Of a stretch of 64,000 nt of DNA, positions 629 through 43,123 are shown in pieces. The notes under the pieces were generated by a model. It did not search any database. It saw only the letters and a program-made list of their open reading frames with translations, and had not been told where the DNA came from. This DNA is from Candidatus Heimdallarchaeum aukensis (GTDB taxonomy: Archaea > Asgardarchaeota > Heimdallarchaeia > Heimdallarchaeales > Heimdallarchaeaceae): positions 608,001 through 672,000 of the forward strand of contig CP084166.1 of the NCBI GenBank assembly GCA_021513695.1. Direction: 5' to 3'. A program made the position numbers and the translations under genes. Position 1 is the first letter of the stretch; each line of letters starts with the position of its first letter.

Positions 629-1195
629 ATGCTCACATTTAAGATCCTTTTTATAGGCGATAATAGCGTAGGTAAAACTACTTTATTTAAAAAAATTGTT
701 CAAAATGAAAAAAATAAAGAAAAGATCCCTTCTCTAAAAGCAGAAATAGTAAAAGTTTATCGTACAATCCAAGGAGAAGAAGTAGCTTTTGAACTATATG
801 ATTTACCTGCGAGAGAACTTTTATCATCTCCTCAAAGAACAAAATGGTATTTAGGGACTGATGGAGCGTTTATAGTTTTTGACATTACAAAAGCAGAAAC
901 GTTCAGAAGAGTAACATTCTGGCTAGAACAATTAATAAATTATAACAGAAAAGGGAAGATACCTATAGTATTAGTAGGTAATAAAATAGATATGAGAGAC
1001 AATCCTAATGTGAGAAATAGGACACTAAACCCTATAGATGCTCAAGCTTTCTGTCTTCGACTAAATCGTACATCAGCTAGAGAAGGAATTAATAATGAAT
1101 TCTTCGAAGTCTCAGCAATCTCAGGGAAAGGTTTAACTCAATTACTTGATGCATTAGCTAAAAATATTTATAACCATCACAAAAAAATAAAATAG
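629..1195 (+). CDS. Divergent Ras-superfamily small GTPase with non-canonical G3 (DLPARE)
   Basis: Motifs: FIGDNSVGKTT (G1), GNKIDM (G4), VSAISG (G5). G3 reads YDLPARE instead of DxxGQ. The C-terminus is polybasic (HHKKIK). A GAGG-like motif lies about 10 nt upstream of the ATG. Confidence 0.85.
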   Translation: MLTFKILFIGDNSVGKTTLFKKIVQNEKNKEKIPSLKAEIVKVYRTIQGEEVAFELYDLPARELLSSPQRTKWYLGTDGAFIVFDITKAETFRRVTFWLEQLINYNRKGKIPIVLVGNKIDMRDNPNVRNRTLNPIDAQAFCLRLNRTSAREGINNEFFEVSAISGKGLTQLLDALAKNIYNHHKKIK

Positions 1196-14017: not shown

Positions 14018-16018
14018 ATGAAAAGTTTTTTACCTAAATTTCTGCTTAATGAAATCGATCTTTATTTAGATGATTCTCAGAAGTCTATTTTTGAAGAGAA
14101 GGTTAAAAGTATTGTAAGTAATGCTTCTGACTATGATACGATTTCCAAGGACATTACTGCCTTTCTTTTGAATGAAGATTTTACTGATTTAACGACTTAT
14201 GATCAAATGCTTATTCTTGTTTCAATTCTTCTAAATTACTGGAAAAAGGATTATTCTCTTATTTTTAGCATCTATGACAAATTTCATTCTTTTGATTTAC
14301 CTCTTAGCGTTATGATTTGTTTTCTTCTATTTTTTCAAGAATCTTTTGATTTAACCACTTTTAACCTTTGGAGAGAGAAGATAGAAGAGTACATTACAAA
14401 CATTTCTGATTCTACTGAAAAAGAATTTCTTAAAACTGCTATTGAGCAATTTGCTTCTAAGCTTGAGCAAAGGCCTGAGGTTGGTTATCGTTCTATGAAT
14501 CAGCTTATTCGTTCTCTTGAGGAGAATGAGCATATTTCTTATCGATATCCTTTTGTTTTCGAGGCTTTAGAGATTGATCTTATTCAGTACTCTAACATTT
14601 TAGCTGATGAAGTTTTTTCTGAAATCTGGATTGAGTCCGCTAGAAGAAGAGCTGAAGTTATGGAAAACTATGGCATGTTAGTTCAAGTTAACAGCCTTCT
14701 TGCTAGTATTTTAGTTAAAGAGTATCATCTTGAAAAAGCTAAAGAGAAAATTGAGGAGGGGTTAGAGATTGCTAAGAGGATCAATTCTCCTATTTTAGCT
14801 GCTCAAATTGAGTTGAACAAGGCCTTGTTATTGAAGATGCAAGGTAAGTTGGACGAAGCTTTGAAGTTATATGAAAAAATTGCTAAAGTTAAGAATCTTC
14901 CTCAAACTTTTCAATTGGATATTTACAGTAAAATAGGTGAAATTTATCTCAACAAGGACGAGATAGTTAAAGCTGAAGAATACTACCTTAAAGCTCACGA
15001 GATTAATAAGAAACTTAATTTTATCAATCCTCTTGTTGAAATAGTTATAGGTTACATTAACCTGATTTTAGAGAAAGATAAGGGGGAAGCTTTAGATGAG
15101 GGGTTGAAGATTGCTGAAGAACAGTTTGATTTTTCTTCTATTCCTTACTACTACTTCTACAAAGGTATTTATGAGCAACAAAGGGTTAACTTATCCTTAT
15201 CTATTGAATACCTTGAACAAGCTTTGAACTCTTTTGAGCACCAAAAGAACTTTGAGGGTATTGTTTATACTAACGGTGCATTGGCAGAGTCTTATCTTCA
15301 GATTTACAAGCTTCTTCACGATAACAAATATTCTTCTCGGTTCCTCTATTATATTGACAATCTTATTGAAATACTAAAGGAGTTAAACAATCCTTTGTAT
15401 GTTGAAGCAATAAAGACTAAAGCAGGTTACTATTTAGATAAAGGTTTAATTAAAAATGCTGAAGATCTGTTTATTGATGGAATAGAATTTGCTAGGACAC
15501 GAGGATTAAAAGAGGAAGAAATATATCTTAAGGAATCGCTTACTAACAAGAAGAATTTAACAAAAATAACTTTAGAAGGTACTCAAATACTCTTTAGAAA
15601 AATAAGGATGTTCAGCTTTGGTAAGCATAAAACTGTTCCCACCAAATTATACTTACTTTTAGCCATTAATGAAGCTGGAATTCCTTTAGTTTCTCACTCT
15701 TTTACTGAAGAAGAGATGGTAGATGATCTTTTAGTTTCAGGGTTAATTTCAGCTATAATTAATTTCTCTTCTGAAGTTCTAGGAAAAGGAGGAGAAACCT
15801 TACGATCAATAAATCATGAGGGCAAAGCTGTTATAGTAGAGAAAAAGGACAATGTGATGGGTATCTTAGTTGCTGAAGATGAGAATTTCGAGATGAGACT
15901 GGAACTTAGACAGTTTTTGCAGAAAGCGCTTGATAAGTTAGTTTCTGGACTTCCTATTGTCAGAGAAAACGACAGTGAGATTTTTTCTATTATAGAAGAA
16001 GTTTTTGAGAGAAAATAA
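14018..16018 (+). CDS. TPR-like helical repeat protein with C-terminal longin-like alpha/beta module
   Basis: The central region has TPR-like units (e.g. LNKALLLKMQGKLDEALKLYEKIA, IYSKIGEIYLNKDEIVKAEEYYLKAHEI). The C-terminal 125 aa are KLYLLLAINEAGIPLVSHSF..DDLLVSGLISAIINFSSEVLG..TLRSINHEGKAVIVEKKDNVMGILVAED..FEMRLELRQFLQKALDKL. Confidence 0.8.
   Translation: MKSFLPKFLLNEIDLYLDDSQKSIFEEKVKSIVSNASDYDTISKDITAFLLNEDFTDLTTYDQMLILVSILLNYWKKDYSLIFSIYDKFHSFDLPLSVMICFLLFFQESFDLTTFNLWREKIEEYITNISDSTEKEFLKTAIEQFASKLEQRPEVGYRSMNQLIRSLEENEHISYRYPFVFEALEIDLIQYSNILADEVFSEIWIESARRRAEVMENYGMLVQVNSLLASILVKEYHLEKAKEKIEEGLEIAKRINSPILAAQIELNKALLLKMQGKLDEALKLYEKIAKVKNLPQTFQLDIYSKIGEIYLNKDEIVKAEEYYLKAHEINKKLNFINPLVEIVIGYINLILEKDKGEALDEGLKIAEEQFDFSSIPYYYFYKGIYEQQRVNLSLSIEYLEQALNSFEHQKNFEGIVYTNGALAESYLQIYKLLHDNKYSSRFLYYIDNLIEILKELNNPLYVEAIKTKAGYYLDKGLIKNAEDLFIDGIEFARTRGLKEEEIYLKESLTNKKNLTKITLEGTQILFRKIRMFSFGKHKTVPTKLYLLLAINEAGIPLVSHSFTEEEMVDDLLVSGLISAIINFSSEVLGKGGETLRSINHEGKAVIVEKKDNVMGILVAEDENFEMRLELRQFLQKALDKLVSGLPIVRENDSEIFSIIEEVFERK
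15641..16015 (+). other. Longin-like (beta-beta-alpha-beta-beta-beta-alpha) domain, copy 1
   Basis: The order of hydrophobic strand and helix segments, read from the sequence, matches the longin/SNARE-like fold rather than Roadblock (which begins with a helix). It is shared with 25497..25904 and 33719..34033. Confidence 0.5.
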
Positions 16019-22576: not shown

Positions 22577-24934
22577 ATGAAAAAACGAACGAACATTAAA
22601 AAAATAAATTTCATATTGTTCTTAATTTTTGTTCTTTTTGCAAGTTTTGCAATTGAACATGTTACAATAAAAGCTTCAGATAGCACCAACATAGGAAACC
22701 AGAAACATTTCGTTGATGACAACGCTGAGATCTTAATTATTTCAGATAATGATTTTGTTAAATATGGTTTTCCAGGGGATGGTTCTGTAGATAATCCATA
22801 TATTATCAGCAACCTAGATTTAAATACATCGAAAATGTTTGGTATATTTATTTCTAATGTAAGTTCATATTTTGTAATAGAAAACTGTTTTATTAGATCT
22901 TCTTATTACGGAATATCAGTTAGTGGTCTTGAAGAAAACAGAGCTACTATAAGAAACAATACCTTTTACAAAAGTATTGTAGCTGTTGAAATTAGCCATT
23001 CTCCAGGAATAACAATAATTAACAATAATTTCACTGAAAACAGAGATTATGGGATTTTTATTGAATATTCACCTGATTCCGTTTTGAACTCAAATTACTT
23101 TTTCAAGAATGGCGTGGGTTATTCCGGAAATGGTCTAATTATTAAAGAATCTGAAAATTCAACAATTACCAATAACTCTTTTGTTAGGGATGGTTTAGCT
23201 ATAGAGCCCTCAAATTTTGACATTAAATTGAGCTTATTTAATAATACAGTTAATAATAAACTAATTGGCTACTTCACTAAACAGAACAATATAGTAGTAG
23301 ATCAGTCTATTTATGGTCAAATACTTATCATTGAATGCTCAAATGTTTTTATTTCAAATCAAACGATTTCAGAAACTAATGTTGCTATTTCTGTTTATAA
23401 CTCAAATAGTATACTTATTTCAAATAATACTCTTATGAGCAATGATAAAGGGATTTTCTTATTTCAAACCTATGACTTTGCAATAGAGAGAAACTTTCTA
23501 GAAAATAATTCATTGAATGGATTAGAAATCAACGATTGTACTAAATTCAACATCGTAGATAATGAGATAATCAACAACAGGAAAGGGATTGAGTTATTTA
23601 TTGTCGATGGTTACTCAATTTCTAACATTAATAAGAACACAATTAAGGAGAATTTAGAAGAAGGACTTTCATTAAACACTGTAAATAATTTAAACATAAG
23701 CGAGAATTTCATATACAAAAATTTAGTAGGAATATATGCTTATTATTCTTCTAATGTCTATATAGTTGCTAATTCATTTGAAGTTAATTACCTTTATGCT
23801 ATAACTTTAATGGAAAGTGTAAACAACTTCTATATTTATTATAATCTCTTTGCAACCAATAATCTTGAAAACAAAAACGAATCCCAGTGTTTAGATAATG
23901 GAGTAAATAATCTATGGTACAATCCAGATACAGAAAAAGGAAATTATTGGACAGATCTTAATGACCAAAAGGTTTACTCAATAGGAGGTTCTGCAGGAAG
24001 TATTGATGCATATCCTATGGACCCATTTATAGTCGATTATCCTCCTTTATTTAATTGGCAACTTTACCTGATTCTTCCACTTACTTTAACAACCCTTTTA
24101 TCTGCAGGAGCTTATTTCTTGATCAAAAAAAGAGAAAGAAGAAATTCCAATCTTTCTGATTACAAGAAAGAGCTGAAAAAAGAGAAAGAGTGGGCTAGTG
24201 CTATTACAGAGAAAAAAGATAAAGTAGGTTCTCCAATTAGTAATCTAAACAAACAGATTAGAAAACATTTGGTAAAGAACTTTTCTAAATGGTTTATAGT
24301 AGGTTCAATTTCAGTACTTGTTATTAGCTCTGGATTTTTAGCTTACAAACTTTCGGTCTCTCCTGATAATACTAACCAAAACGGTGCAATGGTAAAATAT
24401 GCCCAAGCTCTTCAACAATCTATTCCTGAAGCTGTCTATATAGAGATTATAGGTAATGCTACATCGGCAATACATGAGAGTTTAATGGATGCACATATTT
24501 ATCGTATAAGCCCCTATCCAGATTTGACTTGGGAAGTTACAGCTAATATTCTCAAATTTGATGATGAAGGAAGAGCTTACCTTGAAGAAATTTCTTTCAC
24601 TCTCGACAGTTATGTAATTGATGAAATCGGACAAAATCTCTTCGAATCTCTCAACAACACCGTGATTTTAGGACATTACGGAGAAAAACCCTACAACGAT
24701 GAAGATACTTACAACATAAATATTAAATGGGGTTTAAGATTTTTCTTGGAAAATACTACAATAATTGAGTTGATTGTACTAGAGAATGGTCTTGTAGTAT
24801 ATGCAAAAGGCTACTGGGTAACTTTTTCTAATTATTCAACAAACATGATCGGAGCTTTAATTATTGGACCAGAATCTGCTTTTGACAATACTATTCGAAT
24901 TCTAAGAGAGATTTTTGAGGAAAATATAAATTAG
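22577..24934 (+). CDS. Secreted/membrane-anchored right-handed parallel beta-helix (PbH1/NosD-like) repeat protein
   Basis: N-terminal signal/anchor (INFILFLIFVLFASFAI). About 15 repeats of roughly 22 aa have N-x-[IF]-x-x-N and G-I-x-[IL] patterns (ISHSPGITIINNNFTENRDYGIFIEYS, etc.). There are many N-x-S/T sequons and two later TM segments that flank a basic loop. Confidence 0.8.
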   Translation: MKKRTNIKKINFILFLIFVLFASFAIEHVTIKASDSTNIGNQKHFVDDNAEILIISDNDFVKYGFPGDGSVDNPYIISNLDLNTSKMFGIFISNVSSYFVIENCFIRSSYYGISVSGLEENRATIRNNTFYKSIVAVEISHSPGITIINNNFTENRDYGIFIEYSPDSVLNSNYFFKNGVGYSGNGLIIKESENSTITNNSFVRDGLAIEPSNFDIKLSLFNNTVNNKLIGYFTKQNNIVVDQSIYGQILIIECSNVFISNQTISETNVAISVYNSNSILISNNTLMSNDKGIFLFQTYDFAIERNFLENNSLNGLEINDCTKFNIVDNEIINNRKGIELFIVDGYSISNINKNTIKENLEEGLSLNTVNNLNISENFIYKNLVGIYAYYSSNVYIVANSFEVNYLYAITLMESVNNFYIYYNLFATNNLENKNESQCLDNGVNNLWYNPDTEKGNYWTDLNDQKVYSIGGSAGSIDAYPMDPFIVDYPPLFNWQLYLILPLTLTTLLSAGAYFLIKKRERRNSNLSDYKKELKKEKEWASAITEKKDKVGSPISNLNKQIRKHLVKNFSKWFIVGSISVLVISSGFLAYKLSVSPDNTNQNGAMVKYAQALQQSIPEAVYIEIIGNATSAIHESLMDAHIYRISPYPDLTWEVTANILKFDDEGRAYLEEISFTLDSYVIDEIGQNLFESLNNTVILGHYGEKPYNDEDTYNINIKWGLRFFLENTTIIELIVLENGLVVYAKGYWVTFSNYSTNMIGALIIGPESAFDNTIRILREIFEENIN

Positions 24935-25493: not shown

Positions 25494-27419
25494 TTAATTA
25501 ATATATGTTAGAATGAAAGAATCTTGTATAAGATCTTCTATTTTCTTTTCTTCTATTTTGTCAAAAAACTTACCTGTTTTTGGAATGGAAGTTAGTTTAT
25601 GCCATAATTCCTCGAATTTTCCAATGTTATTAACAAAGTTATCTATCTTTTTATTGGCAGTGAAAGAAGAGCCTTTGAACACATAACAAAAGATTATTCC
25701 TTCCTTGTTTTTGAACGTCAAAAAGTAGTCATGATATTCTACTTGCTTGATTGAACCTTCTGTTGCTAAAACCTCTTTTAATATGTTATTTAAAGCAGAA
25801 AGGAATCCTGAAAATAGAATACTGTCATATTTCTCCTCACTAAAGTTATAACTGTAAAGTGGTATTCCATGTTCATTTAGAATAAGCAACATAACTGGAG
25901 TGTCTTTTTCTATTACTTCGAGTTCGTAGCTAACCCTTTGTATCATCTGCGAAACTAAAGTGTCAACTTGTGTTTTTTCTATTCTTTTCTTTATACTCAC
26001 ATCAGAATTAAGAATTGCTTTCCATTTATTATGTTCTCTTACAATTGAATCATATTCTAAACTTATTTTTTGAGCTAAATTGTCTAATCCTTGAGAAAAA
26101 GCTATCTCCTGCGCTTTTAATAAATCCTCTTGAGCTTCATCAAGATTTAGTTGAATTAGATTAATCTTTCCTTTTAACCAGTAAGCTTCTGCTAAGAGAG
26201 ACCTAGATATTTGCATTTCTGCAATTTTTAATAGCTGAATGTTTATATCCTTTAGTTCATCTATAATTTCGCTTTCATTAAAAATAGTAAGCTCTTCTAG
26301 CAATATTTCAGTAAGGTTTAACATCGCATGAATATTTATCTCATTGTAAATTTCATTCGTTCTAATAATAGAATGAAGAAGAGAGATAGCTTTCGCTTGT
26401 GAAACAAATCTTTTTCGCTCTTTTAATACACTTGCTTCTGTTAGTTTAGCATAAAAACTCAAAAACTTGTTTTTTTCCTTTCTAGATAATTTTTTTAATT
26501 CTTTCAAGTATTCCTGAGCTTTCGATATTTGCCCTAGTAAAATGTGTAACTTAGTCAAATAATAGGTGGATTCAGCTATAATATAGTTAAATTTAACTAA
26601 TTTTGCATAATTTATACTTTTATCGAAAAAATCTAAAGCTAGATTAAACTCTCCTTTACTGAAATAAACGATGCCTATATTATTGAAAACTTGTGAAATT
26701 CCAAAAATATTTTCTTTTTCTTGATAGTTAATTAAAGCATCGTTATATAGTTCAACCGCTTTATTTAGATTTCCTTTTAATCTATAAATCTCACCTATAG
26801 AAATTAAAGTATTGTTAATTATTTGCTTCGAGTTTAAAAATTCACCATAAACAAGACACTCTTCAAAACAAGCAAGGCTTTGATTTAGATTTCCTTTTTG
26901 GGCATTTATTTTTCCTTCTCTATATTTTAAAAAAGCATAAATTTTGGTCTCATTCTTCTCTTTAACTAATTGTAAAGATTTTTTTACTAAATTCAGTGCT
27001 CGTGGTAGATCTTTATAGATAACCAGTAAAGCTTGGCAGAGATTGAAAATGGCATTAACTTCATTTTTATCTTTCTTAATTACCTTTGATTTTGTTTTTT
27101 TGAAGTGTAATAAAATTTCTTCACTTTTTTTGTTTTGTGATAAAAGGAGAGAAAAAACCTCTATCAAATAATAGTAAACATAGAAATCATTAGCCATAAG
27201 TTCTTTCTCATTTTCAAGGTAACTTAAAAGTTGAAGGCCAAATACTTTGCAATCCTCTACTTTACCAAACTCATAAGCTGTTTCAACTTTGTGATTTAAT
27301 AAACTTCTTTTTTCAATTGAAGGTTGTTTTCTCTCTTCTTCATGGTTATTTATTTGGGTAATAATTTCAGAATATTTGGTTGAATCTAGAATTTTTTCGT
27401 TTTCTATGAAATCTATCAC
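25494..27419 (-). CDS. TPR repeat protein with C-terminal longin-like module (paralogue of 14018..16018)
   Basis: Multiple canonical TPRs (e.g. ISIGEIYRLKGNLNKAVELYNDALINY, NNIGIVYFSKGEFNLALDFFDKSINYA). The C-terminus is PVMLLILNEHGIPLYSYNF..DSILFSGFLSALNNILKEVL..GSIKQVEYHDYFLTFKNKEGIIFCYVF. Confidence 0.85.
   Translation of the reverse strand: MIDFIENEKILDSTKYSEIITQINNHEEERKQPSIEKRSLLNHKVETAYEFGKVEDCKVFGLQLLSYLENEKELMANDFYVYYYLIEVFSLLLSQNKKSEEILLHFKKTKSKVIKKDKNEVNAIFNLCQALLVIYKDLPRALNLVKKSLQLVKEKNETKIYAFLKYREGKINAQKGNLNQSLACFEECLVYGEFLNSKQIINNTLISIGEIYRLKGNLNKAVELYNDALINYQEKENIFGISQVFNNIGIVYFSKGEFNLALDFFDKSINYAKLVKFNYIIAESTYYLTKLHILLGQISKAQEYLKELKKLSRKEKNKFLSFYAKLTEASVLKERKRFVSQAKAISLLHSIIRTNEIYNEINIHAMLNLTEILLEELTIFNESEIIDELKDINIQLLKIAEMQISRSLLAEAYWLKGKINLIQLNLDEAQEDLLKAQEIAFSQGLDNLAQKISLEYDSIVREHNKWKAILNSDVSIKKRIEKTQVDTLVSQMIQRVSYELEVIEKDTPVMLLILNEHGIPLYSYNFSEEKYDSILFSGFLSALNNILKEVLATEGSIKQVEYHDYFLTFKNKEGIIFCYVFKGSSFTANKKIDNFVNNIGKFEELWHKLTSIPKTGKFFDKIEEKKIEDLIQDSFILTYIN
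25497..25904 (-). other. Longin-like domain, copy 2
   Basis: It aligns by eye with copy 1: hydrophobic strand + G-I-P-L-x-S/Y-x-x-F, then D-x-(I/L)-L-x-SG-(L/F)-(I/L)-SA-(I/L)-x-N, then G-x-(L/I)-(R/K)-x-(I/V)-x-(H/Y). Confidence 0.5.
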
Positions 27420-27679: not shown

Positions 27680-30600
27680 ATGAAAAAGAAGACAATAACT
27701 TTGATCTTTATACTGTTAATAATGATTCAAGTATCTTCTTTATTTATAGAAACAGAAGCTTCAAATTACATATATACTCAACTTAAGTGGAGAAAAATAT
27801 CAAGCTACAATTATGGAGAAGCTTCTTTCTTTGACTATGATAAAGACGGAAAATTAGATGTTTTTTTTAAAACAGCAGAAGGCATAGAAATTTACAATCA
27901 TAAAGGAAATCTATTAAAGAAAATTCATGGTTATTTCCAATATACCCCCACAATTACAGACCTAGAAAAAGATGGAGATTTAGAGTTTATTACTCAAAAC
28001 TACTATGGAATAGAAATATACGATTCTACCGGACAATTAAAAGAACAGAACTTAACTTTATATAGTGCCTACGCGAGAATTGTGGTTGCAGACATTAACA
28101 ATGACGGGATACAAGAAATAATTTATCATTCCACAGGTGATATAATATGCTTCAACAATCAATTAGAAGAAATTTGGAGCTATAAATTTGAAAATCCAGA
28201 CTATTATGGAAGTATTTATGATCTCGTAGTTAATTCAGATGCAGATTCTGAAAAAGAAATTGTAGTTTATTATGACAACTCGATTTATCTATTTAATACA
28301 GATGGTGAAAAAAAATGGTCAAAATCCTTACCTTCTGAAGGAATTGTCGCTTATGATTTTAATGATGATGGTATAGATGAAATAATTGGAACCAAATCAT
28401 CAGATTACACAATTTACTCTTTAAACAGTCAAGATGGTTCTGAATTGTGGATTAATGAAATGGCTGTAAACTTAAACCCTTTGCCTATTGACCTTGATCA
28501 AGATGGAATTGTAGAATTAATAGCTCTTTCTACTGATAATGACAAGTCTGAATCTTATATTAATTATATCAATGGAAAAACAGGAGAAGTAGAAGAACAG
28601 GTAACTGTAGATCAAAGATTCTTTACTAATTCATATTACGAATTCTTTCCTGAAACTCCAGCTGTAGGAGATTTTGATGGTAATGGGGTGTTGGACCTTA
28701 TCTTTCTTGCTTTTTCATATGCTTATAGTGTTGCTACACTGATTTATTCTGCAGATGGGTATAGAATAGCAGAATTTGACGAGGGTTCACTAACAACTCC
28801 AACAATTGTTGACCTGGATGGTAATGGAAGAACAGAAATAATGATACGTGATTATTCAGGAATATTCTGCTATGAGGTTACTGGATCAACTTCTGGAAAA
28901 AATATCTGGTATAAAGAAAGAGGAAATATAGCTAATACAATGGTAGTAGATACAGATGGAGACTTGCTAGATGATATAAGCGAAGAATTTTATGGTTCAG
29001 ATAAAGGAAAAGAAGATACTGACGGTGATACCCTTTTAGACGGAATAGAGATAATTGGTTCTGGTTCTTCACCTATAAAACAAGACACTGATGGAGATGG
29101 TTTAACAGATGATGTTGAATATGAATTAGGTTTCAACCCAAGATTAAATGACTTAGATTTGGATTATGATGATGATAGTTTAACCAATTATGATGAAGTA
29201 TTTGTTTATTCAACAAATCCTATGTCTAATGATACAGATAACGATTTACTACTTGATAATGAAGAAATTAATACTTATGGAACGTCTCCAACAAACAACG
29301 ACACAGATGCAGATGGTGTTATTGATGGAGAAGAAGTACATACTTACGGAACATCACCATTAGATAATGATTCAGATGACGATGGAATGGAAGACGGATA
29401 TGAAGTCTTATACAACTTAGATCCTCTTGTAAATGATAGTTATGGAGATATTGACTCAGATGGTTTGTTAAATATTGAAGAGTTTACATACAATTCAAAC
29501 AGTTCAAATGTAGACACAGATAATGACACAATTTCAGATGGTGATGAAGTTCATACTTATGGAACGTCTCCAACAAACAATGATTCTGATGGAGATAATC
29601 TCACAGATAATGAAGAAATTTATACTTATGGAACGTCTCCAACAAACAACGACACAGACGCAGATATTATGTGGGATGGTTGGGAGATTGAATATGGATT
29701 TAATCCCTTAATCGACGATGGAGATGAAGATTTAGATTCTGACGGTCTTTCCAATGCTGAAGAATTTATTTATTCAACAGAGCCTAACAATACTGACTCA
29801 GATTCTGACCAACTCCTTGATGGAGAAGAAGTACATACTTATGGAACAGACCCTGCTAAAATTGATAGTGACGAGGATGAGCTTACTGATTATGAAGAAG
29901 TTATAGTTTATACAACAAATCCTGTGTCTAACGATACTGATAATGACTTAATGGGTGATTATTATGAGGTTAATCATGGTTTAAACCCCCTTGTAAACGA
30001 TACTTTAGGCGATCTTGACAATGATACTCTAACAAATTATGAAGAATTTTTACTTGGTACTTTACCTAATAACAATGATACTGATGGAGATGGAATGAGT
30101 GATGGTTTTGAGTATCAATATGGACTAATTTTAACTGACAATGATTCTTCATTGGACAAGGATAAGGATGGTTTATCTAACCTTGACGAATTTTTACATA
30201 ATACCAACCCTCTCTCTAATGATACTGATGGAGATGGAATGTTTGATGGTTTTGAAGTGCAATATAACCTTAACCCAAATTTAAATGATTCTGCAGGAGA
30301 CCCTGATGCTGATGGAATATCAAATATTGATGAAATGAAATATGGTTCATCACCAATTAGCTCTGATACAGACAGTGACCGTCTAACCGATCCTGAAGAG
30401 ATATTCATCTATCACTCTAATCCTGCAATAAAAGATACAGATGGAGATGGTTTAGAAGATGGAGAAGAAGTACTTGATTTTGGTACAAGCCCAACTAACG
30501 AGGATACAGACGGGGACACTCTTAGTGACTATGTAGAGATTTATGTTTTCCTCACTGACCCAACAGACCCTGATACAGATAACGATGGAATGAATGATGG

Positions 30601-31624
30601 AGAAGAAATAGAAATAGGAAAAGATCCGCTTACTAAAAACTACTACACACCACTTTCTAAACTTCTACTTATATTGCCTATTGTTGGAGGAATAGTCCTC
30701 TTTGGTGGCTTAATATATGGAGCTATGATTTTTTCTAAGAAAATTAAAGAGAGAAAGCGTAAAGAGATAGTAGAAAAAGAGATTCTGTTGCTTAAATCTG
30801 AGCATCTAAATTTAGATGACAGGATAAACATTCTAGCAAAAAAAGAATCTATTTTTACTGATAAAATCACTTTTCGCTCTTTGGTTGATGTGACTAAACT
30901 CTATTTCAACTTTCTTGCAAAATTTGACGATAAATACACTTTAATTACTAAATTCAAAGAAGTTGGTAATCTTCAGGAATGGAATGAAGTGAAGGAGAAA
31001 GCTTTTTCATCCTTTGAACGGCTATTAAATACAATAAAAGACAATCTCCATTCCTTTGACATAAACGACATAATAAAGAATCAGTATCCTTCACTAATAA
31101 ATCTTGAAAAGAAAGGCGAACTAACAGCAAAAGAACTCTTACAAGTTCATTCTGATGGAAAAGATTTACACCTCTATGTTGAAGAATTCAAAAAATATCT
31201 AAAGATTTTACTAAGAAGATTGAACGCTTTAGAATCTCTCTTTTCAACTAAAGATGAGCTTTTGGATATTGTTGCTTCAAGTTCAATTATTACTGCTCTA
31301 AAAGAAAAAGATTCATTAATTACTCAACTAGAGAGGAACGAGATCAAATATGTTCGAGAAAAAATAAATGCAGAAAATCATTGTATTTACTGTGGTATTC
31401 AACTACATGATGATGCTAAAACATGTTCAAACTGCCAACGCACTCTTCCTTCTTGCCCTATTTGTAAAAATACTTTCAGATTCTTTGATGAAGTCTATAC
31501 TTGTCCCGAATGCTTTTCAAAGATTCATAAAGATGAACTGGAGATTTGGTTAGGAGATAAAGGAACTTGTCCTAAATGTAACAAATCTATTACTTTATAC
31601 AACTTAGATGTTGAAATAATCTAA
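27680..31624 (+). CDS. Giant type-I membrane protein: FG-GAP/integrin-alpha-like propeller + thrombospondin-type-3-like Ca-binding repeats + TM + coiled-coil + Cys-rich zinc module
   Basis: Signal peptide (ITLIFILLIMIQVSS). Seven or more D-x-[DN]-x-DG-x-x-[DE] FG-GAP-type loops (DYDKDGKLDV, DLEKDGDLEF, DINNDGIQEI, DFNDDGIDEI, DLDQDGIVEL, DFDGNGVLDL, DLDGNGRTEI). About 25 D-[TS]-D-x-D-x-[LMI]-x-D-x-x-E repeats. TM is LLLILPIVGGIVLFGGLIYGAMIF. The C-terminal zinc module is listed separately. Confidence 0.9.
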   Translation: MKKKTITLIFILLIMIQVSSLFIETEASNYIYTQLKWRKISSYNYGEASFFDYDKDGKLDVFFKTAEGIEIYNHKGNLLKKIHGYFQYTPTITDLEKDGDLEFITQNYYGIEIYDSTGQLKEQNLTLYSAYARIVVADINNDGIQEIIYHSTGDIICFNNQLEEIWSYKFENPDYYGSIYDLVVNSDADSEKEIVVYYDNSIYLFNTDGEKKWSKSLPSEGIVAYDFNDDGIDEIIGTKSSDYTIYSLNSQDGSELWINEMAVNLNPLPIDLDQDGIVELIALSTDNDKSESYINYINGKTGEVEEQVTVDQRFFTNSYYEFFPETPAVGDFDGNGVLDLIFLAFSYAYSVATLIYSADGYRIAEFDEGSLTTPTIVDLDGNGRTEIMIRDYSGIFCYEVTGSTSGKNIWYKERGNIANTMVVDTDGDLLDDISEEFYGSDKGKEDTDGDTLLDGIEIIGSGSSPIKQDTDGDGLTDDVEYELGFNPRLNDLDLDYDDDSLTNYDEVFVYSTNPMSNDTDNDLLLDNEEINTYGTSPTNNDTDADGVIDGEEVHTYGTSPLDNDSDDDGMEDGYEVLYNLDPLVNDSYGDIDSDGLLNIEEFTYNSNSSNVDTDNDTISDGDEVHTYGTSPTNNDSDGDNLTDNEEIYTYGTSPTNNDTDADIMWDGWEIEYGFNPLIDDGDEDLDSDGLSNAEEFIYSTEPNNTDSDSDQLLDGEEVHTYGTDPAKIDSDEDELTDYEEVIVYTTNPVSNDTDNDLMGDYYEVNHGLNPLVNDTLGDLDNDTLTNYEEFLLGTLPNNNDTDGDGMSDGFEYQYGLILTDNDSSLDKDKDGLSNLDEFLHNTNPLSNDTDGDGMFDGFEVQYNLNPNLNDSAGDPDADGISNIDEMKYGSSPISSDTDSDRLTDPEEIFIYHSNPAIKDTDGDGLEDGEEVLDFGTSPTNEDTDGDTLSDYVEIYVFLTDPTDPDTDNDGMNDGEEIEIGKDPLTKNYYTPLSKLLLILPIVGGIVLFGGLIYGAMIFSKKIKERKRKEIVEKEILLLKSEHLNLDDRINILAKKESIFTDKITFRSLVDVTKLYFNFLAKFDDKYTLITKFKEVGNLQEWNEVKEKAFSSFERLLNTIKDNLHSFDINDIIKNQYPSLINLEKKGELTAKELLQVHSDGKDLHLYVEEFKKYLKILLRRLNALESLFSTKDELLDIVASSSIITALKEKDSLITQLERNEIKYVREKINAENHCIYCGIQLHDDAKTCSNCQRTLPSCPICKNTFRFFDEVYTCPECFSKIHKDELEIWLGDKGTCPKCNKSITLYNLDVEII
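27800..28930 (+). other. FG-GAP (integrin-alpha-like) beta-propeller region
   Basis: Periodic Ca-binding loops as listed for the parent CDS. Boundaries are approximate. Confidence 0.6.
28949..30640 (+). repeat. Thrombospondin type 3-like calcium-binding repeat array (coding)
   Basis: Repeated DTDGDGLxDGxE / NDTDNDxLxDxxE units. It includes three 28-nt identical DNA copies at 29271, 29553 and 29622. Confidence 0.8.
31382..31600 (+). other. Cytoplasmic Cys-rich zinc-binding module (zinc ribbon + RING-like element)
   Basis: CIYC-x11-CSNC is followed by CPIC-x12-CPEC-x4-H-x13-CPKC. The segment IHKDELEIWLGDKGTCPKC resembles the C-terminal half of RING-H2 fingers (H..C/x..WL....CPxC). Confidence 0.5.
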
Positions 31625-33433: not shown

Positions 33434-36400
33434 TCATTTTTTTATTTCTAAATAGCCTAAATTGTAAAGAATTTGGAGATAAGATAGAGTTTTTCCTCTT
33501 TCTATGTCATCTTCAATTTTATTAATTAACTCTTCAATGAGGAAAAAGTCATTTTTATTCAGATATTTTTCTAGTTGTTTTTCTAAATACTTGCTTTGCT
33601 TAATTTTTTTAGAATCTCTAACTTTTATGGGGTTCTTCATCCATAAGTAAAGAAATGAGTTACATTTTTCTATAATTTCCTCCTTTTTACCATTAAATAC
33701 AGATGGATCCCCATTCCAACCTTCCGCATAGCTGTGAAAATTAGCTTCAAACCAAAGAATAATTGATTGAATGCTTAAATCTATGTCTAAAGTAATATCA
33801 GTTTCTGAAAACACATAAATCACAAAATGATCAGTTCGTGCGCTAGTCACTACAAAATTTTGATATTGAATCTTTCTTATATCTCCGGAACCTTTCTCTG
33901 TTAATTCATTTCCTATTGAAGAAATTGCTTGAAAGAAGCCTGATATAAGTGTTGAATCTCTTTGGAAGTCTGAACCCAAATCCACTTCAAAAATAGAAAT
34001 GGATGTTTCTTGATGGACAATTATTATCTTTTTTATTGAGTTAATCTTTAAATAATCATTATATGTAGAAATGTAAAATTCATTTGCTTTTCTTTTCCTA
34101 ATAACAAGCAAATAGAAAATTAGGAAAGCAATAGAAGAGGTTAGAATTGGTAAAATTATAAATAATAACATTTTTACTAAAAATAAATATGGATCTTTCC
34201 CATTTGGTGAATTAGGATTTGTAGGAGAGGGGGGAGATGTAGGAGTAACAGGATTAACAATTAGTTTAAAACCTAAAGTGATTTCAGAAGAGGAGGTATT
34301 AAGTTTAAAGTTTTCTTTTGTAATTTCTAAATCTAGAGAAAAGTTCCCTGATTGTATTCCTAATTTTGAGATATTTAAGGAAATATTTGTGTATTCATCA
34401 GTATTGATTACATTATAATATTCTGATAAGACTGTAATTCCATTCATTTTAATCTTTATATTTTCGCTAAATATAGGAATGATATTTTTATCATTGTCAG
34501 TTTCATTTGTAATCCTAAATGAAATATTTGCTATCAAATTCTGTTCTAATACAAACTCATTTTCTAAAGGATATAAGAGAGAGAAACCCATTTTGAAAAA
34601 GATTCTTAAGTAAATTGTCTTTGATTGATTATGATAATAAGAACTATTAAAAATAATGTCTATTGACTGAATTCCTACAGGAGAACTCAGAGAAACATTG
34701 GTGAAATAATAGTCTCCTAAATAAGAAAATTCTCCATTCGTCTTCCAGCTTGTATTAAACAGAATCTTTTCATTACTGATATATGTGAAAGAATAATTTG
34801 AATTCAGATTAGAAAGAGAGTAAATCCAACTTCTTATTGATAATTTCTCTCCACTAAATCGTTCCACAAGTGTTTCATTTGTCCAATTATCAGAAAAAGA
34901 TTCTACTTGCCATATAGTTTCAAGTCTTGCATAAGCTTTAACCTCTACACTTTTAGTTAGAAAACCAACTTCAGTCCCATTTTTCCAGTAAACAAAGATA
35001 GTCCATTCTCCAGGTGTATCAGAATTTTCAAATGAAGGATCGAGAGTAATATTTGTATAGAATTGATTATTCGATGAATCTAAACTACCAATAGTTGTAT
35101 AGCTAGAATTGTCAATATATTTTAATAAAGAAGAGATATTTGCTTTTATTGGGCTAATTTCTCCGTTTGGATTAAATAATGTAAAATTGATTATTCCAGA
35201 GCTTTCATTGTTTAACAAACTAGTGGAAAGATCTAGTTTAGAACCTTCATAACCATAAAAGTAATTATCTCCTTTTATCCAATATCCGAGATTGATTTCA
35301 TTTTGATCACTAGAAAAAACAGTAAGGCTGGTAACATAGTTAGGACTAGTTGTTTGTAAAGTAAAGTTACAAGCTTCTAAAGAATTATTAAGTTGAAGTC
35401 TATAGATATTATTTAATTTTAAGGTTGAGAGAGAGAAAGTTTTATTCATAACAGTTCGAGCATCATTAACAGACCAATCTTCTTGTGAAAAAATATCGAT
35501 TACTCTCTCGAATAGGAAGTAGGAAGTCACATTTGCTGAAGGCAGTTCCCAAAATATTTCCCAGTTAATTTCTCTTTCAGTAGTTTCATTACTTACACTA
35601 TAGAAAGAAATAGCATCCATGTCTCTGTAAAAAAGATAAGTGTTATTTATCTCTAAAATAATTGAAGTATTTGCTGTGACTACTTGAACACCAGAATTAG
35701 AAAGAGGGCTATTAAAAGATAAAATTTGTTCTCCATTAACTTGTAAATATAGTTCAAGAGGATTATTGAATAAAAGGTTATTTCCATTTTCGTCTGTTGG
35801 ACATATATCCACTATCAAAGACAAATCAAAAGAAGCTACAAATGGTTGCCAACCTCCGCTTTCTTCAAAATAAAAAGTTTTTCCATCATCAGAAGCCTTT
35901 CTTCCTCTCCAGATGAAAGAACTATCGCTACTATTGTCTATAATTGATAAATTAGCAACTAAAAAATATTGGCCTTTCTCTAATACTGTGGGGTTAAATT
36001 CATAATATGAAAAACTTCCTCCTAATAAGTTGTAATTTGATTCATTAAAAGGATTAGACAAAGCTTCAGTAAGAATATGATTCATATCAGGATATCCTGT
36101 CTGATTAGCCTTAACAACAAATAGATCAAGAGAATTATTTCCTAATCCTGTACCATAATCTACTTCTAAACTTATATTTATTCCATAAAACATTGCGTGA
36201 TCCCAAAAAATTTCAAATTCTTGAGCAAGCCCTATATAATCGAAATAAGAGATTGTACCATCAGTTTTCAAGTCGTCTCCCTCTATTACGTAGAAGTCTC
36301 TAATCCCTTCTATTTTTTCAATCATTAGTGTTAGGTCTTCATTAGGAAAATCGGATATTGGTTCGATAACAAAACTATTAGATCGTGAATTAGCTAAATC

Positions 36401-36667
36401 TAAAGTAAGATTCTCATATTGAGAAGTGATTATTGTGTCATAAACTGACAAATTTTTGCCTTTATCTGAAATAGAATTTATCTGAATATTATTTATAAAG
36501 ACAAGGTTTTCATCTATGTTTGTGGGTGAATAGTCTGTTTTGGGAGTAAAATTATTTTCTTTCATCTTTGAATTGAAAAAGTTTCCTTTTAAGGTAGAAA
36601 AAGGTAAAAGTATGGCAATAATAAAGAACACAATAAATAATACTTTTTTCCTTTTTACACCTTGCAA
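33434..36667 (-). CDS. Giant surface protein (signal anchor, ~800-aa N-glycosylation-sequon-rich ectodomain, Pro-rich stalk, TM) with cytoplasmic longin-like module
   Basis: N-terminal anchor VLFIVFFIIAILLPF. Dozens of N-x-S/T sequons. Stalk PVTPTSPPSPTNPNSPNG. TM LLFIILPILTSSIAFLIFYLLVI followed by RKRK (positive-inside). The cytoplasmic tail is IIIVHQETSISIFEVDL..STLISGFFQAISSIGNEL..IRKIQYQNFVVTSARTDHFVIYVF. Confidence 0.85.
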   Translation of the reverse strand: MQGVKRKKVLFIVFFIIAILLPFSTLKGNFFNSKMKENNFTPKTDYSPTNIDENLVFINNIQINSISDKGKNLSVYDTIITSQYENLTLDLANSRSNSFVIEPISDFPNEDLTLMIEKIEGIRDFYVIEGDDLKTDGTISYFDYIGLAQEFEIFWDHAMFYGINISLEVDYGTGLGNNSLDLFVVKANQTGYPDMNHILTEALSNPFNESNYNLLGGSFSYYEFNPTVLEKGQYFLVANLSIIDNSSDSSFIWRGRKASDDGKTFYFEESGGWQPFVASFDLSLIVDICPTDENGNNLLFNNPLELYLQVNGEQILSFNSPLSNSGVQVVTANTSIILEINNTYLFYRDMDAISFYSVSNETTEREINWEIFWELPSANVTSYFLFERVIDIFSQEDWSVNDARTVMNKTFSLSTLKLNNIYRLQLNNSLEACNFTLQTTSPNYVTSLTVFSSDQNEINLGYWIKGDNYFYGYEGSKLDLSTSLLNNESSGIINFTLFNPNGEISPIKANISSLLKYIDNSSYTTIGSLDSSNNQFYTNITLDPSFENSDTPGEWTIFVYWKNGTEVGFLTKSVEVKAYARLETIWQVESFSDNWTNETLVERFSGEKLSIRSWIYSLSNLNSNYSFTYISNEKILFNTSWKTNGEFSYLGDYYFTNVSLSSPVGIQSIDIIFNSSYYHNQSKTIYLRIFFKMGFSLLYPLENEFVLEQNLIANISFRITNETDNDKNIIPIFSENIKIKMNGITVLSEYYNVINTDEYTNISLNISKLGIQSGNFSLDLEITKENFKLNTSSSEITLGFKLIVNPVTPTSPPSPTNPNSPNGKDPYLFLVKMLLFIILPILTSSIAFLIFYLLVIRKRKANEFYISTYNDYLKINSIKKIIIVHQETSISIFEVDLGSDFQRDSTLISGFFQAISSIGNELTEKGSGDIRKIQYQNFVVTSARTDHFVIYVFSETDITLDIDLSIQSIILWFEANFHSYAEGWNGDPSVFNGKKEEIIEKCNSFLYLWMKNPIKVRDSKKIKQSKYLEKQLEKYLNKNDFFLIEELINKIEDDIERGKTLSYLQILYNLGYLEIKK
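33719..34033 (-). other. Longin-like domain, copy 3 (cytoplasmic tail of surface protein)
   Basis: It has the same strand-strand-helix(SGF-x-x-AI)-strand-strand-strand layout as copies 1 and 2. Confidence 0.45.
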
Positions 36668-41023: not shown

Positions 41024-43123
41024 ATGAGTAATACTGACAAAAAAATAGAGATTTTTAATAATCTTTTTTTAAAAATCAAAAAACAGATAATAGATAACCA
41101 GAGCAGTTCTAAACTTAAATTTGATGAAAGAGAAGTATTACTCAACTCATTTATTGTCTCAATAAAAACTCTTCTTATCAAAGAAATGTTTCTTAAGGAA
41201 GAAAAAGTTGAGATAGAAAAAAAAATTAATTTGAATTACTTTTTCATAGAATTAGATAATATCTTTAGAGAAATATTTACCGATGGCTCTTTCCGAAAAG
41301 CTGATTTAGAAATCATTAGAGAAAAATCAATACAACAACTGATTTTACAATACTTAGAAAGCAAAGACTCGATAATTATTGATTTAGCAGGAAAGGATTT
41401 ATTCTCTCAAATATATGAAACTGCCCTCAACAAAAATGAAAAAGATCAACTAGGCTTATTTTATACTCCTGAAATTATCGTTAATTATATCCTAAATTTA
41501 GTAAATTATAAGACTGATTCAGAAATTGTAAACAAAAAGATACTTGATCCAAGCTGTGGTTCAGGAAGTTTTCTAGTCAAATCTGTAAATAGGTTATTAC
41601 AAGCGTTAAAGAAAGAAAATTTAGAAGAAAGTGAAATTCTATACAAGATAAGAAATGCTGTTTTTGGTATAGACATTGATCCTATAGCTGTTTTTCTTTC
41701 TAAAACTAATATCCTATTCCAGATTTTTCCTTTATTTATCACCCTCTACAAAAAAAGAACTTTGACACAATTTCCTCCTTTGCATGTTTATTGTTTTGAT
41801 TCTCTAAACAAAAAAAGTAGAAATAAAGATACAACTTCTTTTAAGATTATTAATAGAGAAAAAGAGTTTACCTCAGGTTTTGATTTTATTGTTGGAAATC
41901 CTCCTTATATTGAATCTAAAAAAATGGATATTGAAACAAAGAAAAAATGTATAGAGAACTTTCCTGAAATTTGTAAAGGAGCTTTTGATATATACATCTG
42001 TTTTATTCAACTTGGTTTAGACTTACTTAGTGTAAATGGAAAGTTAGGTTTTATTATTCCAAACAAATTTCTTTCTGCTAACTATTCTAAAGCACTAAGA
42101 AAGAAGATTATCTATGAATTTGACATTCTACATCTAGTAGACCTTTCTTCTTCAAATATTTTTAAAAATGCAAGTGTTTATCCTATAATTATTTCAATTA
42201 AAAAAAGGAAATCTAAATCCGAAGGCATAAAAAATAACTTTTTGATAAGTAAAGTAGAAGGACAAATTACGAATATTGAGGAAATCAAAGGAATACCAAT
42301 AAATCAATCTTTTTTCAAAAAAACTGTTAATAACTTTATTTTTTCTTTTCCAAATGATTTAGACGAAGCAGAACTTGTAAAACGTTTAATTATGACTAGC
42401 CCTTTTAAACTTGGAGAATTCCTTAAGATTAGCTGGTCAGTTTCTTTCCATAGAAAAGGATTAAGAGAACAATTTGTTTTTACTAAAAATGTTGATGGTA
42501 ACTTTAGAAAAATTTTAGGTGGAAAGAAGTTTGGAGGAAATTCTGAAGTCAAAAGATATTTGATACAATGGGATGGTCATTGGATTGACTACAATAGAGA
42601 AAAAGCAAAAAGACTGAATAATCCCTTTCCTCCATTAAGTTTATTTAACAATGAAAAAATAATCATCTGTCAAAATAGCAAAAGAATTCGAGCTGTTCTA
42701 GACAAAGAAGGTTTCATTTGCAAAGATATTTTCTTTGTAGCTAAAATTACTCCAAAGACGCTAAATACAAGTCTAAATTATGAAGTGATATTATCTGTAA
42801 TTAATAGTAAACTAATGAGCTATTTATACGATAGAATTTTTTCTAGTACTCACGTTTCAGGAAGATATTTACACTATTTACCAACTTATTTACATTCACT
42901 TCCTTTTCCTAAACTGTCTGAAATAGAAAAAAAACAGTTACATGAGCTCACGAAGAAAATAATGAAAAAAGAGATAACAGAAAAGGATTTTATTAAAATA
43001 GATAAAGAAATTGATAAGATAATTTACAATGCATTTGGATTAGAAAATCATGAAATAGAAATAGTAGAAAAATATGTTTCATCGTATATGTCTTTAAAAA
43101 AATTAAAGGATATAAGAAAATAA
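41024..43123 (+). CDS. N6-adenine DNA methyltransferase, Eco57I/TaqI-like (gamma class) with C-terminal target-recognition domain
   Basis: LGLFYTPEIIVNYIL (motif X), ILDPSCGSGSFLV (motif I), FGIDIDPIAV, FDFIVGNPPYI (motif IV, NPPY). I recognised no PD-(D/E)xK nuclease motif and there is no neighbouring restriction gene. Confidence 0.85.
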   Translation: MSNTDKKIEIFNNLFLKIKKQIIDNQSSSKLKFDEREVLLNSFIVSIKTLLIKEMFLKEEKVEIEKKINLNYFFIELDNIFREIFTDGSFRKADLEIIREKSIQQLILQYLESKDSIIIDLAGKDLFSQIYETALNKNEKDQLGLFYTPEIIVNYILNLVNYKTDSEIVNKKILDPSCGSGSFLVKSVNRLLQALKKENLEESEILYKIRNAVFGIDIDPIAVFLSKTNILFQIFPLFITLYKKRTLTQFPPLHVYCFDSLNKKSRNKDTTSFKIINREKEFTSGFDFIVGNPPYIESKKMDIETKKKCIENFPEICKGAFDIYICFIQLGLDLLSVNGKLGFIIPNKFLSANYSKALRKKIIYEFDILHLVDLSSSNIFKNASVYPIIISIKKRKSKSEGIKNNFLISKVEGQITNIEEIKGIPINQSFFKKTVNNFIFSFPNDLDEAELVKRLIMTSPFKLGEFLKISWSVSFHRKGLREQFVFTKNVDGNFRKILGGKKFGGNSEVKRYLIQWDGHWIDYNREKAKRLNNPFPPLSLFNNEKIIICQNSKRIRAVLDKEGFICKDIFFVAKITPKTLNTSLNYEVILSVINSKLMSYLYDRIFSSTHVSGRYLHYLPTYLHSLPFPKLSEIEKKQLHELTKKIMKKEITEKDFIKIDKEIDKIIYNAFGLENHEIEIVEKYVSSYMSLKKLKDIRK

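Follow-up and report, generated by a model that had tools for sequence, protein, structure and literature searches.

The gene, its product and its relatives

The window analysed here, a stretch of 64,000 nucleotides from Candidatus Heimdallarchaeum aukensis, carries at 33434–36667 on the minus strand a real gene for a protein of 1077 amino acids, the features of which are listed in Table 1. Upstream of its start codon, TTG, stand GAGG at a distance of about 8 nt and TTTATA at about 60 nt. In an NCBI copy with 99% identity the annotation begins at M35 and thus omits the signal anchor. Scans for promoters and terminators revealed no enrichment over shuffled sequence, the consensus being bacterial and uninformative for an archaeon. 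The immediate neighbours code for an aminotransferase, a GHMP kinase, a ketopantoate reductase, a DUF5700 peptidase and an RM methylase; their order is syntenic at the locus of an orthologue with 66% identity and holds no functional information. Since full-length orthologues are conserved, an artefact of gene calling was rejected. The comparison with orthologues that the earlier note had called for showed the same architecture at 66% and 31% identity.

Table 1. Features of the 1077-aa protein and of two related TPR proteins (positions in the window)
Feature	Residues	Position	Strand	Evidence and remarks
Signal peptide or signal anchor, MQGVKRKK + VLFIVFFIIAILLPFSTL	1–26	36590..36667	-	TTG start; hydropathy peak 2.5; AF2 helix aa 3–24
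Variable low-confidence linker	27–59	36491..36589	-	AF2 pLDDT <50 for aa 21–59
All-beta multi-domain ectodomain (about 745 aa)	60–805	34253..36490	-	34 of 35 N-x-S/T sequons
Pro/Ser/Thr-rich stalk, PVTPTSPPSPTNPNSPNG	806–823	34199..34252	-	Sequence; AF2 pLDDT <50 for aa 806–834
Transmembrane helix	~827–856	34100..34189	-	Hydropathy peak 2.6; within long AF2 helix aa 828–876
RKRK positive-inside cluster	857–860	34088..34099	-	Read from sequence
Juxtamembrane helix alpha0	861–876	34040..34087	-	AF2 helix, tail residues 2–17, pLDDT ~94
Longin-type domain, order b1-b2-a1-b3-b4-b5-a2-a3	878–1011	33635..34036	-	
C-terminal winged-helix-like segment	1014–1077	33437..33628	-	AF2: three helices and terminal strand
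Longin-like module, C-terminus of TPR protein 14018–16018		15668..15919	+	Family HMM E=6.8e-12; Fuz_longin_1 sub-threshold, E=0.028
Longin-like module, C-terminus of TPR protein 25494–27419		25512..25889	-	Family HMM E=1.5e-11; Fuz_longin_1 sub-threshold, E=0.0042

The N-terminal segment (aa 1–26) is conserved in P0002, P0003 and P0004. The linker behind it aligns poorly between orthologues and holds, at aa 39, the one sequon that falls before the ectodomain proper.

The protein belongs to an Asgard family without annotation, found mainly in Heimdallarchaeia, its named sources being Heimdall and Loki archaea. The longin-like module of its tail is present in 111 cluster representatives, 70 of which possess a transmembrane helix just upstream. 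Related loci were collected with a degenerate DNA pattern for W-x-N-G-T-E-x-G-F, giving 110 DNA stretches; among 112 fetched loci 31 bore the family, and many of the remainder were bacterial records. A word-indexed profile search added just 7 proteins, and GTDB representatives searched with a single protein returned no relative. Giant paralogues often stand in tandem arrays in Heimdall genomes, sometimes with shorter genes beside them that encode a soluble tail alone (about 220 aa). The module is also found with unrelated ectodomains, in polytopic membrane proteins, on a HerA-like ATPase and ahead of PCI/UFL1-type winged-helix (WH) repeats.

Within the window the same module closes two TPR proteins, a match which the earlier note had read from the letters and which the family profile confirms for both (Table 1). 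Pairwise BLASTP between the tail and these proteins is marginal (E=3e-4 and 0.033). Besides the two TPR C-termini, the tail-family profile found nothing below E=0.01 among all ORFs of the window. The small GTPases, which the earlier note had placed in the neighbourhood, are encoded at 56–1195, more than 32 kb from the gene, and are not neighbours; no Ras-like GTPase ORF occurs in the 31 related family loci. The source genome does encode Ras-superfamily GTPases.

Membrane topology and the ectodomain

Hydropathy analysis revealed exactly two hydrophobic segments, at aa ~3–26 (after KRKK) and aa ~827–856 (followed by RKRK, 857–860). The N-terminal signal anchor, the Pro-rich stalk and the transmembrane helix running into RKRK are thus all present as originally described. 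The ectodomain was said to be packed with N-x-S/T sequons, and the count of 35 agrees with this, since 2000 shuffles that preserved composition gave 16.8±3.5 and never as many as 35. None was found in the tail among the 192 residues counted after RKRK (aa 886–1077); the whole cytoplasmic tail is 218 aa long.

Across the family, the 15 residues after the transmembrane helix hold on average 5.5 lysines and arginines versus 0.79 in those before it, the module side being the positive one in 70/70 members. Sequons number 3.5 per 100 aa outside, which is 2.3 times the expectation from composition, and 0.46 per 100 aa inside, which is the expectation (1.05 times); the enrichment is thus confined to the N-terminal side of the helix. 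A signal sequence, one further transmembrane segment, a positive-inside flank and sequon asymmetry together mark a type I surface protein, with the ectodomain N-out and the tail C-in, and the proposed orientation holds for the target as well as for its family. Both the positive-inside rule and the uneven distribution of sequons speak against an extracellular tail, which was rejected for these reasons.

To judge from its sequons, the ectodomain is probably glycosylated. Its structural matches are generic, being to beta-sandwich surface, S-layer and phage-tail proteins. We infer that it may be an adhesin or a ligand-binding surface module, and since the matches are generic a ligand-binding role is an analogy only.

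The longin-type domain and winged-helix-like end of the tail

The AF2 model of the tail (pLDDT 85, pTM 0.82) contains, in tail numbering, E19–26, E32–37, H46–63, E73–76, E79–85, E89–95, H101–122 and H130–147, all of which are reproduced in the full-length model. There, the juxtamembrane helix runs on from the transmembrane helix. As modelled, these elements form the longin/Roadblock (LD/RD) fold, in which five antiparallel strands make a beta-meander, flanked by a single helix on one face and by further helices on the opposite one. Solved LD/RD domains are significantly similar in structure to the model. The model aligns with longins over 122–146 residues and with Roadblocks over 91–105, lengths which fit the longin order bb-a-bbb-aa. 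Matches to longins of the SNARE and SR-alpha type score below those to TRAPP, AP and COPI longins and to Roadblocks. The prediction therefore supports a longin/Roadblock-superfamily fold for the first half of the tail, as had been proposed from its sequence.

At the sequence level, the target matches none of the curated Pfam families Longin, Robl_LC7, Sybindin, Fuz_longin_1 and NPR2/NPR3 above gathering score, and neither Pfam nor NCBIfam yielded a match above threshold for the whole protein, its tail or its ectodomain. Sybindin appears below threshold in one of 20 relatives (E=0.001). Sequence-profile searches of the PDB, whether from the tail or from the full-length alignment, returned insignificant matches only (BlaI, E=0.17; PCNA, E=0.33). 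Among 118 matched family domains, a few of the proteins coming from more than one search, the most conserved elements are alpha1 (2.82 bits), with the signature D-x-x-L-[IV]-S-G-F-[LF]-x-A-[IV]-S, and beta3 (2.56 bits). According to Levine et al. 2013 (PMC3747258), longins dimerise through these two elements, which also make up their single-helix GTPase face.

The C-terminal end, earlier read as winged-helix-like, resembles such a domain in the AF2 model (H167–177, H185–190, H195–210 and E214–216 in tail numbering), although the protein ends after one short strand where a winged helix has a beta-hairpin wing behind its three-helix bundle. Its sequence matches are all sub-threshold, namely the BlaI repressor wHTH (E=0.17) and HTH_24 in 2/20 members, so that the assignment is supported by the model topology and not at the sequence level. 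The three helices and strand, together with these weak matches, would suit a membrane-tethered one-component regulator like ToxR or CadC, with a DNA-binding winged helix and an ectodomain that responds to signals from outside. Against this, the segment carries a net charge of anywhere between -6 and +8 (mean 0), its helix 3, which would be the recognition helix, is hydrophobic or acidic with no conserved basic character, and no conserved target locus lies nearby. The equivalent WH that Pfam recognises in paralogues is of the PCI/UFL1/DDRGK protein-interaction type, and PCI/UFL1-type WH repeats take this same C-terminal position in paralogous architectures. On charge and conservation, we regard a DNA-binding regulator as very unlikely; the winged helix probably adds a PCI-type protein-protein contact instead.

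Possible function and comparison with known systems

Tentatively, we take the most likely function of the protein to be that of an adhesin or receptor whose tail serves as a longin docking platform; in eukaryotes it is small GTPases that dock on the longin fold. The tail would be more than a passive anchor. Solved longin/Roadblock complexes dimerise, and bind their partners, through alpha1 and beta3. As these are also the most conserved elements of the family, the tail would probably use them to pair with another receptor tail or else with a soluble tail-only paralogue. Such pairing would create a membrane-attached longin platform, which might recruit a cytoplasmic partner where the ectodomain is engaged. 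The candidate partner would be a small Ras-superfamily GTPase, for which, to our knowledge, every well-studied longin/Roadblock dimer sets a precedent; such GTPases are encoded in the genome.

For the platform we counted the anatomy, the longin fold, the conservation of alpha1 and beta3, the recurrence of the module and the non-basic winged helix. Counted against it were the lack of genomic linkage to a GTPase, in the window and in the 31 loci alike, the failure to reach any curated longin/Roadblock Pfam family at the sequence level, and the continuity of the juxtamembrane and transmembrane helices in the model, which bears on the geometry of a membrane-proximal dimer. Longins also have roles unrelated to GTPases, as in SNARE regulation and in the sigma and mu subunits of AP complexes, and this too counts against it.

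Possible as well, if somewhat doubtful, is a purely structural surface protein, that is an S-layer-like, sheath or adhesin component whose tail is an anchor, an oligomerisation module or a tag for assembly or sorting, with no part in signalling or GTPase docking. The resemblance of the ectodomain to surface, S-layer and phage-tail proteins, its high sequon density, the tandem arrays of diverging paralogues (typical of variable surface proteins) and the missing GTPase linkage all speak for such a component. The tail, however, is at least as conserved as the ectodomain (29–38% versus about 27–35% identity), and a folded two-domain tail of 218 aa far exceeds what an anchor needs. Moreover, its conserved surface is the known partner face, and the occurrence of the module on soluble TPR proteins and enzymes suggests a portable interaction function.

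The docking-platform reading can be extended to a more specific and rather improbable proposal. Transmembrane receptors of Heimdallarchaeia would, on contact or ligand-driven pairing of their ectodomains, assemble a cytoplasmic longin dimer, to which a soluble tail-only paralogue might contribute the second protomer, and this dimer would recruit or regulate an Asgard GTPase of the Ras superfamily. If true, the eukaryotic links between surface receptors and GTPases, or between cargo and adaptors, would here have a prokaryotic precursor in which the membrane protein brings its own longin platform.

The source lineage is that of the archaea closest to eukaryotes. Asgard archaea, cells without endomembranes, count longin and Roadblock domains among their signature eukaryote-like proteins. 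The present family sets a longin-type domain at the cytoplasmic side of the cell membrane, joined to a large, probably glycosylated surface domain, and its tails, being small, confidently modelled and easy to express, offer a testable entry point. Should they dock GTPases, longin platforms would have coupled the cell surface to GTPases before eukaryotic trafficking arose; should they not, the family would represent a structural use of the longin fold unrelated to GTPases. The earlier note knew of no described archaeal example. For the architecture itself this stands, as a transmembrane-anchored longin receptor in Asgard archaea was not found described in the searchable literature, the coverage of which is incomplete and leaves absence unproven; it does not extend to the domains, since Asgard Roadblock/longin proteins and many fusions of them are well documented (PMC10933270; bioRxiv 10.1101/2020.10.19.343400).

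The tethered longin had at first been likened to an SR-alpha-type or SNARE-type arrangement, that is a membrane-tethered longin acting in protein targeting or membrane fusion. The likeness does not hold, and we consider this the least probable explanation of all. In SNAREs the longin is N-terminal and is followed by the SNARE motif and a C-terminal transmembrane or lipid anchor, with no ectodomain. The target differs from the longin SNAREs Sec22b, VAMP7 and Ykt6 in that its longin lies C-terminal to the transmembrane helix, the opposite orientation, with a three-helix WH-like domain behind it and a large ectodomain on the other side. Pfam found no Synaptobrevin or SNARE match in it, and it has neither a SNARE heptad motif nor an SRP54-type NG domain. 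The SRX domain of SR-alpha is not membrane-integral and precedes an NG GTPase domain; SR-alpha itself is peripheral and held at the membrane by SR-beta, so that the target is not of this type either. The lower structural scores of both longin types point the same way.

The TRAPP longins Bet5/TRAPPC1 and Trs23/TRAPPC4 (synbindin) are small and soluble and work within a multisubunit Rab GEF, whereas the longin of the target belongs to the cytoplasmic tail of a giant protein that spans the membrane once at the cell surface, with a winged-helix-like segment behind it; near the gene there is no TRAPPC3/Bet3 partner. Roadblock/MglB proteins, including the solved Asgard Roadblocks (PDB 9jue, 9jq8 and 7f8m; PMC10933270), align over the shorter length only and, unlike the target, possess an N-terminal helix, lack the two C-terminal helices and are small and soluble. 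The CHiPS longins (Fuzzy, Mon1 and HPS1; Fuz_longin_1, PF19036) are matched below the Pfam cut-off by the TPR relatives and not by the target tail, and are soluble tri-longin GEF subunits, again unlike the target. With NPRL2/NPRL3 of GATOR1 the target appears to share the domain order, a longin followed by one or more winged-helix domains, and Asgard NPRL2-like longins have been reported in fusion with many signalling domains (10.1101/2020.10.19.343400; PMC3747258).

Gene structure, topology and ectodomain

The target gene is the sole long ORF at its place and, from a TTG start, specifies 1077 amino acids. GAGG lies ~8 nt and a TTTATA element ~60 nt 5' of this codon, in a window with a G+C content of ~30%. 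The closest database copy (P0001; 99% identity), from a Candidatus Heimdallarchaeaceae MAG, is annotated by NCBI as starting at Met35, with loss of the signal anchor. Since the N-terminal hydrophobic segment is retained in orthologues at 66% and 31% identity, TTG, at which the 66% orthologue likewise starts, is the better start call. All database copies are labelled 'hypothetical protein'.

Hydropathy analysis revealed exactly two hydrophobic segments. Between these are 35 N-x-S/T sequons, against 16.8±3.5 in composition-preserving shuffles (0 of 2000 attained 35), and the 192 residues of the tail counted past RKRK contain none. The signal anchor, sequon-rich ectodomain, stalk, transmembrane (TM) helix and RKRK listed in the earlier note were all found.

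Searched exhaustively by phmmer, the 218-aa tail matched 111 cluster representatives at E≤1e-3, of which 39 reached E≤1e-10. In 70 of the 111, a TM helix lies ≤90 aa upstream of the module (longin-type domain plus winged-helix-like, WH, segment), and all 70 show a positive bias after it, with a mean K+R per 15 residues of 5.5 compared to 0.79 before. Sequon density in these members is 3.53 per 100 aa N-terminal of the TM, 2.3x the expectation from composition, and 0.46 per 100 aa, equal to expectation, C-terminal of it. From the K+R bias and sequon asymmetry, the module is cytoplasmic and the large N-terminal part extracytoplasmic, the topology first proposed. Judging from its sequence, that part is probably N-glycosylated; the tail is inside the cell whether or not the N-terminal segment is cleaved.

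The ~750-aa ectodomain and the tail are both common to ~28 representatives. In the full-length AlphaFold2 model (pLDDT 80), residues ~65-804 are entirely beta, with disordered linkers at 21-59 and 806-834. Fold matches, all with high rmsd, were to phage phi812 baseplate protein, PBCV-1 capsid protein, Bxb1 tail spike, the Cwp84 lectin-like domain, OST48, filamin Ig domains and archaeal S-layer proteins; on the model, they point to surface modules of a generic beta-sandwich or jelly-roll kind. There was no enzyme fold among these structural matches. In the main rival explanation, which is credible if somewhat doubtful, the protein has a structural part at the surface and its tail serves just as an anchor or assembly tag.

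The tail and its family

Pairwise BLASTP of the tail against the two TPR proteins was marginal (E=3e-4 and 0.033), while the modules of the latter match one another at E=6e-9. An HMM built from 20 of the 111 representatives matched both TPR C-termini at E ~1e-11 and nothing else in the window below E=0.01. The homology is therefore real, and the first half of the tail matches, as originally read, the longin-like module of the TPR proteins.

The AlphaFold2 tail model, based on the family alignment, was confident (pLDDT 85, pTM 0.82) and comprises a juxtamembrane helix, a b1-b2-a1-b3-b4-b5-a2-a3 domain and a three-helix segment with a short final strand. Among the Foldseek matches listed at E≤1e-3, all were of the longin/Roadblock fold class anticipated in the earlier note, aligning over 122-146 residues for longins and 91-105 for Roadblocks. 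These lengths, with the strand and helix order, make the domain longin-type, and by its modelled fold the module sits firmly in the longin/Roadblock superfamily. Nothing in Pfam or NCBIfam scored above threshold, and no curated sequence family there covers the domain; sub-threshold Pfam hints were confined to Fuz_longin_1 for the two TPR proteins and to Sybindin for a single relative.

The proposed winged-helix-like end is supported by model topology, but its sequence matches are weak (BlaI, E=0.17; HTH_24 in 2/20 members). Such an end might suggest a tethered transcription factor. This is improbable: the segment is neutral on average across the family (net charge -6 to +8), helix 3 in it is hydrophobic or acidic, and in paralogues its position is occupied by a PCI-type domain. 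We favour protein-protein contact over DNA binding.

Distribution and genomic neighbourhood

Using a DNA pattern for the conserved ectodomain motif, with confirmation by HMM, 31 loci carrying family members were found. Most archaeal records among the pattern matches are Heimdallarchaeota MAGs; also among them is a complete genome, that of Ca. Heimdallarchaeum endolithica PR6 (CP084167.1). Borrarchaeum and a Thorarchaeote gave weaker matches, to the tail only, and in Loki/Promethearchaeota the module lies behind other ectodomains. Further fusion partners of the module are a HerA-like ATPase (P0052), winged-helix repeats of PCI/UFL1/DDRGK type (P0049, P0058) and polytopic membrane proteins in which several TM segments are predicted (P0065, P0092). 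Giant paralogues are often tandem, with arrays like that of locus L001 in L010, L016, L025, L081, L089 and L100. Soluble tail-only proteins of ~220 aa (longin plus WH, no TM) directly adjoin giant paralogues in other Heimdall genomes and are possible dimer partners; the family HMM found no such gene in this window.

Coordinates of the target, its relatives and nearby genes
Feature	Position	Strand	Remarks
Target gene	33434-36667	-	
TTG start to Met35	36565-36667	-	
N-terminal hydrophobic segment	aa ~3-26		KRKK before it
Pro-rich stalk	begins aa 806		
TM segment	aa ~827-856		followed by RKRK
TPR proteins	14018-16018; 25494-27419	+; -	C-terminal longin-like module
Ras/Roc/Arf-like small GTPases	56-547; 629-1195	+	adjacent, at window edge; first probably truncated by it; pair ~13 kb from nearer TPR-longin gene
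Zinc-ribbon protein	20183-22399	-	738 aa; ≥4 N-terminal double zinc ribbons, long Lys/Glu-rich low-complexity C-terminus
Right-handed beta-helix (NosD-like) surface protein	22577-24934	+	785 aa; signal peptide, two more TM, 18 sequons; probably another glycosylated surface protein
Receptor-like protein	27680-31624	+	1314 aa; signal peptide, FG-GAP/TSP3 (integrin-like) ectodomain, TM at aa ~995, ~300-aa cytoplasmic tail ending in double zinc ribbon or RING-like motif
Eco57I/MmeI-type N6-adenine methyltransferase	41024-43123	+	TaqI-like specificity domain; type IIG/IIL restriction-modification kind
Three giant paralogues	L001 8001-18754	one strand	1084, 1199, 1199 aa; each ectodomain-TM-tail; preceded by 226-aa soluble tail-only gene
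Tail-only genes	L001 7194-7874; L012 4686-5381, 5522-6184; L089 6466-7176		
PR6 orthologue	L082 3129-6353	-	one in-frame stop, HYF*VANLS (QYFLVANLS in window): pseudogene, sequencing error or recoding event

The genes flanking the target are metabolic or unrelated, in an order syntenic in the locus of the 66% orthologue (L002). The receptor-like gene, 1.8 kb from the target, and the methyltransferase gene are both syntenic there. The 'neighbouring small GTPases' of the earlier note, the two Ras-like genes of the window, are in fact >32 kb away, and no Ras-like ORF occurs in the 31 family loci. Because Asgard GTPases generally lie outside operons with Roadblock or longin genes (Tran et al., PMC10933270), this lack of linkage is uninformative and does not refute a GTPase partner.

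Proposed role and known systems

Conservation across the family is highest in alpha1 (2.82 bits) and beta3 (2.56 bits), with the signature D-x-x-L-[IV]-S-G-F-[LF]-x-A-[IV]-S. Since in solved longin/Roadblock complexes the dimer interface and the GTPase-binding face on the single-helix side are built from these two elements (PMC3747258), the tail most likely serves for both pairing and docking. Its partner in the pair would be either the tail of another receptor or one of the soluble tail-only paralogues, and together they would create a membrane-attached longin platform, for which we infer, wholly by precedent, a small GTPase as the most probable class of client.

The observation first made was thus confirmed and its interpretation only partly supported. 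The SR-alpha-type or SNARE-type role suggested by a longin-like domain tethered beneath a receptor-like ectodomain is very improbable, the defining features of both having been tested and found absent from the target, which is neither a SNARE longin nor an SR-alpha. A literature search found no paper on a longin domain as the cytoplasmic tail of a giant type I surface protein, just as the earlier note knew of no described archaeal example. We regard the architecture, topology, fold and modularity of the target family as established. With this family, the lineage of archaea nearest to eukaryotes offers a concrete link from the cell surface to a GTPase-platform fold of eukaryote type, one that can be expanded and is amenable to experiment.

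In Asgard archaea the longin/Roadblock superfamily is known to be both abundant (130 asCOGs) and heavily shuffled, with many fusions in which, for instance, NPRL2-like longins are attached to signalling domains (10.1101/2020.10.19.343400); since Asgard longins are already known to be diverse, the find is not shocking. In its longin-then-WH order the tail is reminiscent of NPRL2/NPRL3 (PMC3747258), but its sequence does not place it among them and its structural scores to them are below those to TRAPP and AP longins. The target is, in our view, a new architecture and a new sequence family within the known longin/Roadblock kind.
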